From assembly GCF_022846255.1 (NCBI RefSeq), contig NZ_AP025682.1: DNA of 64,000 bases; one strand, written 5' to 3'. Source of the DNA: Escherichia coli (GTDB lineage: Bacteria; Pseudomonadota; Gammaproteobacteria; Enterobacterales; Enterobacteriaceae). A program made the position numbers and the translations under genes. Every line of letters begins with the position of its first letter. Position 1 is the stretch's first letter. The notes below the pieces were generated by a model that saw only the letters and a list, made by a program, of their open reading frames with translations, did not search any database and was not told where the DNA came from. Of the stretch, positions 3,201-14,328 are shown piece by piece.

Positions 3201-4493
3201 TCACAGATACGGCGACCAGGCAGGGAATTTGACCTGTCCATCAGTTGCCGGAAGACGCGCTTTGAAACGCCCATCTGTAGAAACCAAATTCAGCACGGAT
3301 CCCATCCCCTGAGAAGAGCTGTAGATTACCATAGTGCCGTTAGGTGCCAGACTTGGCGTTTCATCCAGGAACGTGGACGACAGAACTTGTACGCCTCCCG
3401 TTGCCAGATCTTGTTTGGCAATGTGCTGCTGCCCACCGTTGGAGCTGACCATTACCATAAATTTACCGTCGCTGCTGACATCCGCATCCTGGTTCTGCGA
3501 ACCTTCCCAGGTAATACGTTGTGGCGCACCGCCGTTGATATTCACTTTATAAACCTGCGGACGACCGGCCTGGTCAGAAGTAAATGCCAGGTTCTGGCTG
3601 TCCGGGAACCAAGTCGGTTCGGTATTGTTACTGCGACCATCAGTTACCTGGCGGATCTGACCAGAAGCCAAATCCATTACGTACAGGTTCAGGCTACCGG
3701 TTTTCGACAAGGCGAATGCCAGTTTGCTGCCGTCTGGCGAGAATGCAGGTGCACCGTTGTGACGCGGGAATGAAGCCACCTGACGTACAGCGCCATTTGC
3801 CAGCGTCTGAATAACCAGCGCGGAACGACCGCTTTCGAAGGTCACATAAGCCAGTTTAGAACCGTCTGGTGACCACGCCGGAGACATCAGCGGTTGCGGT
3901 GAACGGTGAACGACAAACTGGTTGTAACCGTCATAGTCAGATACGCGCAGTTCATACGGGAACTGACCGCCGTTAGTCTGAACAACGTAGGCAATACGGG
4001 TACGGAACGCACCTTTAATACCGGTCAGTTTTTCAAATACTTCGTCACTGGCGGTATGACCTGCATAACGCAGCCACTGCTTGTTCACTTTGTACGAGTT
4101 CTGAGCAAGTACAGTACCCGGTGCGCCGCCAGTGTCAACAAGTTGATAAGCGACATTGTAAGAACCATCCGGATTCGGAGTGACCTGACCGACAACCACA
4201 GCGTCAATGCCCAGCGCGGACCATGCAGCTGGTTGTACTTCCTGCGCACTACCCGGCTGCTGTGGCAGACGAGCACGATCTAACGGATTAAATTTACCGC
4301 TGTTACGCAAGTCAGCAGCAACGATGCCGCCAATATCTTCAGGTGCCGCACCAGGCCCCGCCCACTGGAAAGGAACAACACCAATAGGACGACCGGAATC
4401 TACACCGCTGTCGATCACAATGCGGACTTCAGCATGCAGAACTGATGCCCACAGTATGAGAAAACCAAATGCTACTCGTAATGCCTGCTTCAT
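3201..4493 (-). CDS. tolB: Tol-Pal system periplasmic beta-propeller protein TolB
   Basis: Translation [30 protein letters not shown]...; start taken at second Met of the track ORF. Confidence 0.95.
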
Positions 4494-9206: not shown

Positions 9207-10775
9207 TTAGCGTGCCGGCTGAGTAGTCGTGGAAGACTGCTCAAAGTGATAGCGACCGGTTTTCAGGCTGCTTGGGCCGAGGCGTGCAAACTTGAACATT
9301 AAGAACAATTCTGCCACCAGGAACAGGGTATACAGGCCGCAAATCAGCACCATTGAGAAGATGAGATCGCCTGCGGTCAGTGACGAGTTCGCCACAGCTG
9401 TCGGCAGCACTTCACCGATAGCCCACGGTTGGCGGCCATATTCAGCCACGAACCAGCCCGCTTCTACAGCAATCCACGGCAGCGGAATACCGTACAGCGC
9501 GGCGCGCAGCAGCCATTTTTTCTCGCCAATGCGGTTGCGGATGACACTCCAGAAAGAGAGCGCAATGATTGCCAGCAGCAGGAAGCCACACGCCACCATG
9601 ATACGGAACGCGAAGTACAGCGGCGCTACACGCGGAATGGAGTCTTTGGTTGCCTGTTGAATCTGAGCTTCAGTCGCATCAGCCACGTTTGGCGTATAGC
9701 GTTTCAGCAGCAGACCGTAACCGAGATCTTTCTTCATGCTATTGAACTGGTCACGAACGGCCTGGTCGGTAGAACCAGAACGCAGTTGTTCGAGCAGAGA
9801 GTACGCCTTCATCCCGTTACGAATGCGTTCTTCATGCTGCACCATCAGTTCTTTCAGGCCGATAACTGGAGTATCCACGGAACGCGTTGCAATGATGCCC
9901 AGCGCGTAAGGGATCTGGATCGCAAATTTGTTCGTCTCCTCTTCCTGATCAGGAATGCCGAACAGAGTAAAGGCAGCAGGTGCAGGTTGCGTTTCCCACT
10001 CGGCTTCGATAGCAGCCAGTTTGGTTTTCTGCACGTCGCCCATTTCGTAACCGGATTCATCACCCAGAACAATAACAGACAGAACGGCAGCCATACCGAA
10101 GCTGGCAGCGATAGCAAAGGAGCGTTTAGCGAAGGCGAAGTCACGACCTTTCAGCATATACCATGCGCTGATACCGAGGATGAACATCGCGCCAGTCACA
10201 TAACCAGAAGCTACGGTGTGAACGAATTTCACCTGAGCAACCGGGTTAAGCACCAGCTCGGAGAAGCTCACCATCTCCATACGCATAGTTTCAAAGTTGA
10301 AATCGGACGCGATTGGGTTTTGCATCCAGCCGTTTGCAACCAGAATCCACAGTGCGGACAGGTTTGAACCGAGCGCCACCAGCCAGGTGACACACATATG
10401 CTGAACTTTACCCAGACGATCCCAACCGAAGAAGAACAGACCTACAAAGGTGGATTCGAGGAAGAAGGCCATCAGACCTTCGATTGCCAGCGGCGCACCG
10501 AAGATATCCCCTACATAGTGGGAATAGTAAGACCAGTTAGTCCCGAACTGGAACTCCATGGTCAGACCGGTAGCCACACCCAGAGCAAAGTTGATACCAA
10601 ACAACTTGCCCCAGAACTTGGTCATATCTTTATAAATCTGTTTGCCGGAAAGGACGTAGACCGTTTCCATAATGGCCAGCAGGAACGCCATACCGAGCGT
10701 CAGTGGCACAAAAAGGAAGTGGTACATCGCGGTCAAGGCAAACTGTAAGCGCGACAGTTCGACTATATCTAACAT
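9207..10775 (-). CDS. cydA: Cytochrome bd-I ubiquinol oxidase subunit I
   Basis: Translation [20 protein letters not shown]...; start taken at second Met of track ORF (522 aa). Confidence 0.95.
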
Positions 10776-11450
10776 CATGACTCCTTGCTCATCGCATGAA
10801 GACTCCGAGAGTGAACCCCGTTAGAAAGGGTCACACGCATGCCCCAATACAAAATTATTTGCTCGCCTCTATCGTTGCCATTTCATCAAAAGAGGAAAAG
10901 ACAATGATAAAAAAGTTACAAATGTGTTAATGAATAAACCAAATTGATCCCGTAATTATATTACGCCGCAAAATCCTTACAATAAACAGGTTTTTATTGA
11001 GCAAATTTGCATTTTTCGACAGTGATCAATTTATAGCGAAATTGTCACGATCTCACCAATTTGATCTACAACAATTTATCGTGTTTTGCAGATTTTTTTC
11101 AAGAATTAAAAATTGATTTATATCAAAATCAACCACATATGTTAATTATGTGTGAATCATGAGCCACTGGTAACTTTATTGTTAATTTATTGTAACAAAA
11201 CAGCACGGTAAATTACCCACATGGAAATATATAGATAAAAAACCAGTATTTTATTTAACAAAGCCGCTTTATCGACTTTTTATAATACTAATTAGTTAGA
11301 GTAGCTACTTTATTGCCATTTTACATAACATATTTTTATCAACGTTAATTGATTGTTGTCTTTATGAGCAACGTACTGTAAATCCGTCACTTATTGTTTC
11401 ATTGGTAATAATCACAAGAAGAAATAGATACCTTAGGTATAGTCAGATGG
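10776..11450. promoter_or_regulatory. AT-rich region upstream of cydA; probably includes the cydAB promoter/regulatory region, extent uncertain
   Basis: Non-coding AT-rich DNA immediately 5' of cydA; cydAB is known to have a long complex upstream control region. Confidence 0.4.
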
Positions 11451-12103
11451 AACAAGGATTTTTAAAATAAAATATATATGGTATTAATATTTCCCGATCT
11501 GTATTCAATGATTCGCTCAAAGATTGAAAATCAAGAGAAATTGTTATAGCAGTGATACGAAACAACAAAACGGAATGATTGCCAGCCGTTAGAAAACACC
11601 GGACACTCTCGTGTAAAAAGCTACCCTGTCTATGGATATAGCGATATCCACTCATCAAGCGTGGACTGAATGATATTCAGCTCCATATGGGCGGAAACCT
11701 GGAGGATAAATACGATTTCGCCGTTGGAATCAAGGTTGTTCTGCAATATCTACCAGACTGCTTCAATTTATCTGTTTTGGCAGTGCAATAATCTTAATTT
11801 AACTATTTGAAGATGATGATATTGTCAGATGCCAGAAATTTAGTAATCTGGAGAACCGTGTCTATGATCACTAAATATTAAAGTAATAGTCGATAATTCA
11901 GTAGCACATCGGGTAATATAACGTATTGATACATAATCATATTAAAAAATTCGTGATTAAATAACATAAGAATATGTTTTATTATCATTAAAAAACCTTC
12001 TATTTCCATCATCCTTAAGATAATAAAACAGCGAATGATGGATAACTTGACCAGAAAAACAAGCAAGCATATAAAATTAAAAAATATGATTCCACTTTCA
12101 TTT

Positions 12104-13219
12104 TTATAAAATGGCATCGTGAAGAGCGAGTTGATAATGCTGCAATGCATCAGCGTCCTGTCCAGCAGTTTCATAAATTTTGGCAATGTTATAATAGGAG
12201 TTAGCGCGCGTTGTCGCCGCATTTACCCCACTCGCTAACGAGATCGCTTTACGATTTGCCCAAATTGCTTCCGCTATGTTGCCATTTTTCTGATACGCCA
12301 GACCCAGGTTACTAAATGCCTGTCCGTAATTGCCGTCTAATTCTGTTGCCTGTTGGAAGAGTTGAATGGCTTGCTCAAGTTGACCGGTTTTATAAACAGC
12401 TTCACCTTCGCGATTATATTTTCTTGCCAGTTGAGTATCTCCACTGTTTTGCATCGCAGGCGAAGCCGGAGCTGAAGAGTCCGTCGCAGGCATTATCACA
12501 GTGGCTAAATCCCTGACGTCTAATGTGGTGTCGTTAAAATTGGCGCTGGTAACAGAGTTGATATCTTCAAACTCGCCGTTTGGATTGAGTTTAAACACGG
12601 TCCAGATGTTCCCTCGTTTTCCAGCAGGGACACTATAACTACGTACCAGGGAGCTCCCTACATAAACAAACACTCTTGCCTTACTGGCAGAGAGATAATT
12701 ACTGTTGGGCAACCCTTTATTGCTATAGTCCTGCACGGCATAGATGTAACTTTCACCAAAATGCTTTTTGCTGATAGTGACAGTTTCTGGTCCATAGCTA
12801 TCCGTATCATCAACATCCAGATTGGCATCAGTTCCCTCTTTACTATCAAAATAGATATGTCCGCCAGGGAAGATCAAATGCGAATCAAGATCAAAAGGCT
12901 TTTCGCCCCAGCTCAAAACTACACGCATGCCATCCAGATTCGTCATCACCGGACTGATAGCATAAGTCATGCCAGCGCACGGACATTTGACCACCAGATT
13001 GGAATACCCCTCTTTTTTGACGATTAATAGAGCATCTTTATTATCAGCAAATGAAGTCCCCAAACTAATGCTGCCCGAAGTATTTGTGGTTCCAGAAACA
13101 GATTGTGCGCCATTGCGTTGCAGCGTCATCGATGCTCCTTCAATGCGTTTATCTTTCACTGTCGCACTTAAAATATCGATATTTACATCGGCCGCATAAA
13201 CGTCCGAATTTATACCCAT
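12104..13219 (-). CDS. Hypothetical protein, probably exported: N-terminal beta-rich region (PEGA/carboxypeptidase-regulatory-like, then a region with DLDSHL and LDVDDTDSYGPE motifs), low-complexity linker, C-terminal TPR repeats. Possible N-terminal extension to 13267 with no canonical start
   Basis: 371-aa ORF in track; TPR-like helical repeats near C-terminus (AFSNLGLAYQKNGNIAEAI..., YYNIAKIYETAGQDADAL); in-frame upstream codons encode a signal-peptide-like KKKIVLPVALALMGINSDVYA-ADV. Confidence 0.7.
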   Translation of the reverse strand: MGINSDVYAADVNIDILSATVKDKRIEGASMTLQRNGAQSVSGTTNTSGSISLGTSFADNKDALLIVKKEGYSNLVVKCPCAGMTYAISPVMTNLDGMRVVLSWGEKPFDLDSHLIFPGGHIYFDSKEGTDANLDVDDTDSYGPETVTISKKHFGESYIYAVQDYSNKGLPNSNYLSASKARVFVYVGSSLVRSYSVPAGKRGNIWTVFKLNPNGEFEDINSVTSANFNDTTLDVRDLATVIMPATDSSAPASPAMQNSGDTQLARKYNREGEAVYKTGQLEQAIQLFQQATELDGNYGQAFSNLGLAYQKNGNIAEAIWANRKAISLASGVNAATTRANSYYNIAKIYETAGQDADALQHYQLALHDAIL

Positions 13220-13357
13220 CAGGGCCAGAGCAACCGGCAGAACAATTTTCTTCTTGTATAAATGCTTTTACAGAACGGAGAGGGGATATTTTGCCGGGCA
13301 TTATTGCGCAGAAGATGGGAAAAAAGCAGTGGGCAAACTTTTCAGATTAGTGCCCGA

Positions 13358-13458
13358 ATAAAAAAGGCCATCATAAGATGGCCAACCATGTCGAAACCGA
13401 CAGCCCTTCGCCCCTCCTGTAGAGGGAAGCGGCGAGGGCTATTTCTTATTACAGATAT
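13358..13458 (-). ncRNA. sdhX: sucD 3'-UTR, expected position of the 3'-UTR-derived sRNA SdhX (RybD), ending at the sucD terminator
   Basis: Region directly 3' of sucD stop on minus strand, ending in hairpin ggccatc-ataa-gatggcc plus U-run (13358-13383); SdhX is known to derive from the sucD 3'-UTR. The sRNA sequence itself was not checked from memory. Confidence 0.55.
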
Positions 13459-14328
13459 TTATTTCAGAACAGTTTTCAGTGCTTCACCGATATCCGCCAG
13501 GCTGCGAACGGTTTTCACGCCTGCGGCTTCCAGAGCAGCGAATTTCTCATCCGCAGTCCCTTTACCACCGGCAATGATCGCACCTGCGTGACCCATACGT
13601 TTGCCTTTCGGCGCAGTCACACCAGCGATGTAACCCACAACTGGCTTGGTAACGTGCTCCTTGATGTACGCCGCTGCTTCTTCTTCAGCGCTACCGCCGA
13701 TCTCACCGATCATCACGATCGCTTCGGTCTGCGGATCTTTTTCGAACATTTCGAGGATGTCGATAAAGTTAGAACCAGGGATCGGGTCGCCGCCGATACC
13801 GACACAGGTCGACTGACCGAAACCGTAATCCGTGGTCTGTTTAACCGCTTCATAGGTCAGCGTACCGGAACGGGAAACGATACCCACTTTACCCGGTTTG
13901 TGAATGTGACCCGGCTGGATACCGATTTTGCATTCCCCCGGGGTGATAACGCCTGGGCAGTTCGGGCCGATCATACGAACGCCTGCTTCATCCAGTTTCA
14001 CTTTCACCGTCAGCATATCCAGCGTCGGGATGCCTTCAGTGATGGTGATAATCAGTTTGATGCCTGCATCGATAGCTTCCAGAATGGAGTCTTTGCAGAA
14101 CGGTGCTGGTACGTAGATAACAGAGGCGGTAGCGCCAGTAGCAGCAACAGCTTCACGCACGGTGTTGAACACCGGCAGGCCGAGGTGGGTAGTACCGCCT
14201 TTACCTGGGGTTACGCCGCCAACCATTTTAGTGCCGTATGCAATGGCCTGCTCTGAGTGGAAAGTCCCCTGGCTACCGGTAAAGCCCTGGCAGATAACCT
14301 TGGTGTTTTTATCAATTAAAATGGACAT
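13459..14328 (-). CDS. sucD: Succinyl-CoA synthetase alpha subunit
   Basis: 289-aa [48 protein letters not shown]. Confidence 0.95.

Follow-up and report, generated by a model that had tools for sequence, protein, structure and literature searches.

A very probable lineage-wide pseudogene of a tetratricopeptide repeat protein between sucD and cydA in Escherichia coli, attributed to loss of translation initiation

Why should a gene carry, in frame and directly upstream of its first ATG, codons that read like a signal peptide but include no start codon? The question is raised by a gene on the minus strand of the window, by which we mean the whole stretch of 64,000 nucleotides of E. coli DNA (phylogroup B2-like) analyzed here. 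The gene sits between sucD and cydA, with sucC/sucD and cydA as its flanks. Its first ATG, 13219-13217, opens an ORF of 371 amino acids (12104..13219). Reading the minus strand of the window, we found an in-frame TAA (13270-13268), then 16 codons (AAG CAT TTA TAC AAG AAG AAA ATT GTT CTG CCG GTT GCT CTG GCC CTG), then the ATG. The 16 codons translate as KHLYKKKIVLPVALAL (K H L Y K K K I V L P V A L A L). ATG, GTG and TTG are absent from all 16 in-frame codons between the TAA and ATG 13219, and the near-cognate codons among them are one ATT (13246-13244) and three CTG (13240-38, 13228-26 and 13222-20). When the 16 codons are read through into the ORF, the product begins KKKIVLPVALALMGINSDVYA, with ADV following. 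A sequence-only reading had described this arrangement, and its coordinates, the upstream TAA, the 16 codons and the missing ATG, GTG and TTG were all confirmed on the minus strand. It left three options: a rare start codon is used, the true start was lost in a decaying gene, or the hydrophobic run is coincidental. The features of the locus are collected in Table 1.

Table 1. Positions of the features of the locus in the window.
Feature	Position	Strand	Remarks
In-frame stop TAA bounding the extension	13268..13270	-	Same TAA in the ATG-bearing MSB1_4I allele
Shine-Dalgarno remnant AAGCA	13263..13267	-	AAGGA in orthologues; G->C at 13264; from alignments and duplex energy
Former start codon, now AAG (Lys)	13253..13255	-	ATG in orthologues; T->A at 13254
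21-codon Sec-type signal peptide remnant, (M->K)KKIVLPVALALMGINSDVYA	13193..13255	-	Predicted cleavage after V-Y-A
Internal ATG called as start by ORF callers and RefSeq/PGAP	13217..13219	-	Codon 13 of the ancestral signal peptide
Annotated 371-aa ORF, "tetratricopeptide repeat protein"	12104..13219	-	Beta domains, linker and TPR module
259-bp deletion junction, ~12125	12104..12126	-	Relative to class-1 alleles
Terminator-like hairpin and T-run after sucD	13366..13383	-	Sequence scan

Orthologous alleles and the ancestral start

A protein search revealed hundreds of E. coli orthologues that begin MKKIVLPVALALLGMNAGAYA-ADVSIDILSATVKD. Their initiator methionine aligns with the first of the three lysine codons of the window, AAG 13255-13253. 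The ATG-bearing N-terminus (MKKIVLPVALAL…) was found in 572 other complete E. coli genomes, 566 of them with class-1 alleles and six with MSB1_4I-type alleles. The class-1 DNA reads AAAAAGGATTTATACATGAAGAAA, and the window at the same place reads TAAAAGCATTTATACAAGAAGAAA. The orthologues thus have AAGGA-N7-ATG where the window has AAGCA-N7-AAG, and two initiation mutations lie 10 nt apart, AAGGA to AAGCA (G to C at 13264) and ATG to AAG (T to A at 13254). The comparison with orthologues had been proposed by the sequence-only reading, and it showed that they carry ATG where the window has AAG. The textbook signal peptide which that reading had seen upstream of the first ATG matches the orthologue signal peptide residue for residue.

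The combination AAGCA…AAG was present in 540 complete genomes (LF82, UTI89, Nissle 1917, ATCC 25922 and others) in addition to the window. This number is the count obtained with a 53-nt probe, which had 433 exact matches and 107 matches with one mismatch. In six of the six one-mismatch cases that were read, the difference was a synonymous change, CCG to CCA. When the AAG of the probe was restored to ATG and nothing else was changed, no window-type genome matched it exactly, and full reading of 22 window-type loci from genomes, and of the window itself, showed the AAG in every case.

Six genomes (MSB1_4I, SCU-172, MS 21-1 and three more) have the window-type sucD context with an intact AAGGA-N7-ATG, and the MSB1_4I-type alleles also share the signal-peptide variant of the window, MKKIVLPVALALMGINADVYA. 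Because MSB1_4I shares both the context and the variant, the ATG and the Shine-Dalgarno sequence represent the ancestral state of the window's allele class. The signal peptides of the ATG alleles follow the pattern MKKIVLPVALAL[LM]G[MI]NA[GD][AV]YA, and the remnant in the window aligns with it. At the position of the internal ATG 13219, class-1 alleles have TTG (Leu), within the hydrophobic core. As judged from these alignments, the first ATG of the window's gene is a Leu (TTG) to Met polymorphism in the core of the former signal peptide.

Three other ways of translating the region were considered and set aside. One protein of 399 amino acids (P0118) suggested an alternative start, the upstream ATG 13301, fused to the gene. 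The fusion was seen in one low-coverage metagenome contig (L005 3001-3100), and we treated it as a probable assembly error because coverage of the contig is just 1.6x, its sucC/sucD genes are fragmented and it contains two 1-nt homopolymer-type insertions. The 50-aa ORF that starts at the same ATG (13301..13149, minus strand) is shifted by +1 from the frame of the gene and its ATG is missing from class-1 alleles; it was regarded as a chance ORF. Programmed +1 frameshifting from this upstream ORF was rejected, as it lacked a known signal or conservation.

Initiation signals, the signal peptide and its protein family

The strength of initiation was estimated as the predicted duplex energy with the 16S anti-Shine-Dalgarno sequence. 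It was -5.4 kcal/mol for the ATG of class-1 and MSB1_4I alleles, -0.1 kcal/mol for the AAG of the window (13255), -1.6 kcal/mol for its ATT (13246) or CTG (13240), and -2.4 kcal/mol, with the pairing poorly placed, for its internal ATG (13219). By this duplex prediction, no usable Shine-Dalgarno sequence precedes any candidate start of the window (AAG, ATT, CTG or internal ATG). In the E. coli reporters of Hecht et al., which had a good ribosome-binding site, initiation at AUU and CUG amounted to ~0.02-3% of that at AUG, and initiation at the other 57 codons to 0.01-1% (bioRxiv 10.1101/063800). As the near-cognate codons are weak and the Shine-Dalgarno sequence is also gone, meaningful initiation within the extension seems unlikely.

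Signal peptides were called by a heuristic feature table (n-region, core, -3/-1) and not by a dedicated predictor. By this heuristic, the codons in question have a positive n-region, a hydrophobic core and small -3/-1 residues before the mature protein. For their translation as an N-terminus, the window allele offers neither a canonical start nor a Shine-Dalgarno sequence. Initiation at the ATG of the ATG alleles places 21 residues before the cleavage site, with MKK as n-region, a core of ~12 residues and A-Y-A or V-Y-A at -3/-1. In the window, a start at ATT or CTG would leave 18 or 16 residues, in which the Lys-Lys n-region is lost, the core is shortened but still present, and V-Y-A is retained. 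A start at the internal ATG would leave nine residues ending in V-Y-A, with no n-region and no hydrophobic core. The ancestral peptide therefore resembles known Sec/signal peptidase I peptides in its Lys-Lys n-region, its ~12-residue core, its small -3/-1 residues (A-Y-A or V-Y-A) and its place directly before the conserved mature N-terminus. Unlike working Sec peptides, the copy in the window has no initiator codon and is a relic.

Homologues were searched among 1.84 billion representative proteins, and full-length ones were recovered that share 34-49% identity with the E. coli sequence. An N-terminal signal peptide was present in 20 of the 20 full-length homologues retrieved, right before a conserved (V/I)LSATVKD segment (ILSATVKD), and the homologues also share a conserved C-terminal …Y..AI.R(V/M)K.K segment. 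The AlphaFold model of the intact protein was confident (pLDDT 88.6, pTM 0.85). The intact protein comprises the signal peptide, two N-terminal beta domains (residues 24-236), a linker, a three-repeat TPR module and a capping helix. The beta domains carry conserved Cys-Pro-Cys and LDVDDxxxxGPET motifs, and searches with the whole protein and with residues 22-271 revealed no Pfam family and, by sequence, no solved relative for them. All Pfam matches were to TPR, for which both the profile HMM and the fold criteria agreed, and an NCBIfam search gave sub-threshold TPR families only. The label YfaP / DUF2135 used by JGI (P0037, P0058) was not adopted, since Pfam returned no DUF2135 match, whether the query was the entire protein or residues 22-271.

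In a structure comparison of the model, the TPR part superposed on Hop/STI1-type three-repeat modules. The module with its capping helix resembles the TPR domains of Hop/STI1, SGT and PP5. Unlike these proteins, the intact protein is bacterial and predicted to be exported, and it combines the TPR module with two beta domains; the window allele also differs from Hop/STI1-type modules in having no capping helix. Judging by the signal peptides of its homologues, the gene is a member of a widespread family of putatively exported proteins, in which export would be ancestral.

Probable decay of the AAG alleles and its explanation

At the 3′ end of the gene, 259 bp that are present in class 1 (L006 4131-4389) are deleted in the window. 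LHDAIL and a stop stand in place of the final ~21 ancestral codons (…YTEKNKPSYEEAIARVKTKM), and the conserved capping helix at the C-terminus (384-396) is lost; in the AlphaFold model of the intact protein, this helix falls within pLDDT 98 blocks. The deletion was common to all AAG alleles read. It was also found together with an intact ATG in L004/P0001 (P0001-P0013, 383 aa), and thus it is not necessarily inactivating alone. A nonsense mutation, W336* (TGG to TAG), was matched exactly by 183 genomes, Nissle 1917 and ATCC 25922 among them, and a +1 T frameshift at nt 428 was found in eight genomes. Of the 540 genomes with AAG, at least 191 (35%) therefore had an additional nonsense or frameshift mutation, and PGAP flagged a pseudogene in seven of 22 sampled AAG alleles. 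About 65% of the AAG alleles, including that of the window, keep an open frame of 371 codons. The 183 genomes with W336* probably go back to a single mutation in a clone that has since spread (the Nissle 1917 / ATCC 25922 group), so only two independent ORF-breaking events are documented besides the 3′ deletion.

We also compared the substitutions within and between the allele classes, with 19 window-type loci read for the purpose. Between the ATG-bearing classes, dN/dS was 0.11 (23 nonsynonymous and 54 synonymous changes, dS 0.25), which shows historical purifying selection. The variants private to the AAG clade comprised 25 nonsynonymous changes and one stop versus 14 synonymous changes (Fisher P = 3.6e-4 against the 23 and 54 of the ATG alleles), where "private" was defined against five ATG alleles representing three lineages only. 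Among the low-frequency private variants, the numbers were 18 versus 8 (P = 9e-4). These comparisons were made without a matched control of ATG-clade polymorphism or a tree, on alleles that are recombination mosaics. Low-frequency or recent polymorphism is generally enriched for nonsynonymous changes. The counts are thus suggestive of relaxed selection in the AAG clade rather than decisive.

Taken together, the gene is very probably a pseudogene throughout its lineage, having arisen when translation initiation was lost. Two point mutations, one in the Shine-Dalgarno sequence and one in the start codon, would have knocked out initiation in the lineage of the window, which seems to comprise most non-ST131 phylogroup B2 E. 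coli. The former signal-peptide codons would persist as an untranslated in-frame relic, and the internal ATG would let gene callers report an "intact" CDS of 371 amino acids. The locus would be a young pseudogene under neutral drift, and it also has the 3′ deletion and, in about one third of the carriers, a nonsense or frameshift mutation. Little or no protein would be made from the AAG allele, and any product begun at the internal ATG would be expected to remain cytoplasmic. Two observations bear directly on a pseudogene of this kind. Intact orthologues with a start codon and a Shine-Dalgarno sequence occur in 572 genomes, as against 540 genomes and the window that lack both, and the affected lineage has acquired further disabling lesions (W336*, the +1 frameshift and the 3′ deletion). 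Among the options of the sequence-only reading, loss of the true start in a decaying gene is thus the one supported, with an ATG at the equivalent position in the 572 genomes.

In its course the event would be similar to known initiation-loss pseudogenes, in which a lineage-specific loss of the signal is followed by nonsense mutations, frameshifts, deletions and relaxed substitution. The dynamics of pseudogenes have been described by Kuo & Ochman 2010 (PMC2916853), and in Salmonella "pseudo-pseudogenes" have been reported to be expressed at a low level (PMC9122581). Unlike the usual pseudogenes, the body of the ORF is open in most carriers here and a fortuitous in-frame ATG is available; for these reasons, the locus escapes pseudogene counts based on frameshifts and stops. 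A literature search on the locus and on start-loss pseudogenes of B2 E. coli returned general pseudogene papers only.

It is conceivable, although rather improbable, that the silencing was adaptive, the protein being selected against in extra-intestinal and commensal B2 lineages, or that the AAG/ATT/CTG context maintains a trickle of ~0.01-1% of the normal amount which is still functional. The adaptive version would explain why the Shine-Dalgarno sequence and the start codon were both hit and why a nonsense allele then swept the Nissle 1917 / ATCC 25922 group. If either version were true, the locus would be a natural case of expression tuning via start-codon degradation.

Translation from the internal ATG 13219, giving a cytoplasmic protein without a signal peptide and with a new role, is very unlikely. 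No canonical start precedes this codon in its frame, and RefSeq/PGAP annotates the 371-aa CDS in most genomes. However, the ATG has no Shine-Dalgarno sequence (its -2.4 kcal/mol pairing is in a poor position), and in class-1 alleles the codon is a leucine TTG inside the core. PGAP chooses the same ATG in MSB1_4I despite the intact Shine-Dalgarno sequence and ATG upstream, so the call seems to be propagated by homology rather than by evidence. The whole family, with its conserved Cys-Pro-Cys motif, appears to be exported, and the secondary lesions and relaxed-looking substitutions speak against maintenance of a cytoplasmic product.

We consider it slightly less probable still that the exported protein is made from a rare start, namely ATT 13246, CTG 13240 or the AAG. 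Every allele that was read has the extension uninterrupted and in frame, the open frame of the gene is kept in most alleles, and only two variants were seen in the extension, CCG to CCA and GCC to GCT, both synonymous. The reporter data on AUU, CUG (~0.02-3% of AUG) and other codons (0.01-1%) likewise speak for this reading (10.1101/063800). The synonymous variants are also explained by shared ancestry or recombination, as CCA is the class-1 state. Even the best candidate reaches an anti-Shine-Dalgarno energy of just -1.6 kcal/mol, and initiation at ATT or CTG would drop the Lys-Lys n-region. Stops and frameshifts lie downstream in 35% of the carriers, and the substitutions look relaxed.

The closest precedents for a rare start are infC and pcnB, the only confirmed genes of E. 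coli that start with AUU (as cited in 10.1101/063800). The gene studied here is like them in having a proper N-terminus without ATG, GTG or TTG and an ATT codon available. It differs in that AUU is the functional start of infC and pcnB (as cited in 10.1101/063800), while here the orthologues have ATG and the Shine-Dalgarno sequence is destroyed. The ATT of the window lies three codons inside the ancestral signal peptide, not at the conserved orthologous start, and the sites upstream of the candidate codons (-0.1 to -1.6 kcal/mol) are not functional ribosome-binding sites. With an ATG in the orthologues, the case does not belong with infC and pcnB as one of conserved non-canonical initiation. 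Of the rare-start option of the sequence-only reading, the absence of canonical start codons stood, whereas use of a rare codon is disfavoured by the destroyed Shine-Dalgarno sequence, the lesions and the relaxed-looking substitutions, and would best be called unlikely rather than disproved.

Finally, we see practically no chance that the hydrophobic run is coincidental or that the missing ATG is a sequencing error, because each codon of the run has its homologous counterpart in the signal peptide of the ATG orthologues, which is found family-wide, and the AAG recurs in 540 independently sequenced complete genomes; the coincidence and the base-call error that had been raised earlier are thereby excluded.

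Annotation, genomic setting and allelic variation

RefSeq/PGAP names the gene "tetratricopeptide repeat protein" and starts it at the internal ATG. Many RefSeq records of 371 and 385 amino acids start inside the ancestral signal peptide (e.g. WP_000538730.1 and WP_024193058.1). In MSB1_4I (L010, NZ_LR898874.1, 1513-2721), PGAP used the internal ATG (WP_024193058.1, 385 aa) and an intact AAGGA-N7-ATG lies 12 codons upstream. The start is probably mis-called in all six MSB1_4I-type genomes, in which it should shift 12 codons upstream. In the 540 complete genomes with AAG, the gene should be labelled as a pseudogene or as start-lost. More generally, start-loss pseudogenes evade detection based on frameshifts and stops wherever another ATG follows in the same frame. 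Pseudogenes that arise by point mutation of initiation signals are of an ordinary kind, and the value of the case is mainly the correction of annotation in hundreds of RefSeq genomes. The locus also offers a clean contrast, with a putatively exported TPR protein that appears intact in ST131 and silenced in most other B2 lineages, and this could help to find its function.

The 2.7-kb sucD-cydA interval of the window is at most 98.8% identical to complete E. coli chromosomes and is mostly present in 1,104 of 5,426 genomes. Its carriers include LF82, NRG 857C, UTI89, APEC O1, IHE3034, Nissle 1917, ATCC 25922 and ATCC 11775, all of which we take to be phylogroup B2 strains. The window-type 5′ end, with the gene directly 3′ of sucD, was found in 546 genomes. 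The class-1 alleles, in 566 complete genomes that are largely ST131, have the context mngA-mngB-TPR-cydA, in which the gene follows mngB. The window is without mngR-mngA-mngB between sucD and the TPR gene, unlike the class-1 genomes of ST131 and others (window 13352-13458 against L006 1-3000). The two contexts become homologous at ~13352 with TAATCTGAAAAG, just past the hairpin on the sucD side (13383-13366). The 3′ UTR of sucD presumably encodes the sRNA SdhX. An Rfam scan of window positions 10700-13600, including this UTR, gave zero matches at gathering thresholds. Scans for sigma-70 promoters upstream of the gene found no site in the window, the class-1 loci or MSB1_4I, a result that is uninformative on transcription.

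The allele classes are unusually diverged for a single species, with dS of 0.25 over the whole gene and 0.84 in the signal-peptide codons (window 13193-13335 compared with L006 2900-3070), and the promoter-proximal flank is similarly diverged between them. The window allele is a mosaic, as its residues ~50-90 are class-1-like (TNTSGSISLGTSFADNKD) and other AAG alleles have TNASGSVNLGSTFADDQD there. Mosaicism and divergence together point to old alleles that may have been shuffled by recombination.

At the 3′ side of the gene, the deletion in the AAG alleles also takes 195 bp downstream of it. Near the 3′ end of class-1 alleles there is an A7 tract (ACGGAAAAAAATAAG, L006 ~4135-4150). Variants in its length shift the frame of the last ~15 codons and account for a 392-aa form on 165 contigs and for 382-aa forms (P0037, P0014, P0044, P0034); the C-terminus is thus unstable in the "intact" class too. 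Between the end of the gene and cydA, a stretch of ~1.1 kb (window ~10900-12100) has a G+C content of 23-34% and is 94% identical to the class-1 loci. It holds just one ORF, an implausible one of 114 amino acids (11878..12222) that overlaps the 3′ end of the TPR gene. The stretch is presumably part of the long cydAB regulatory region.
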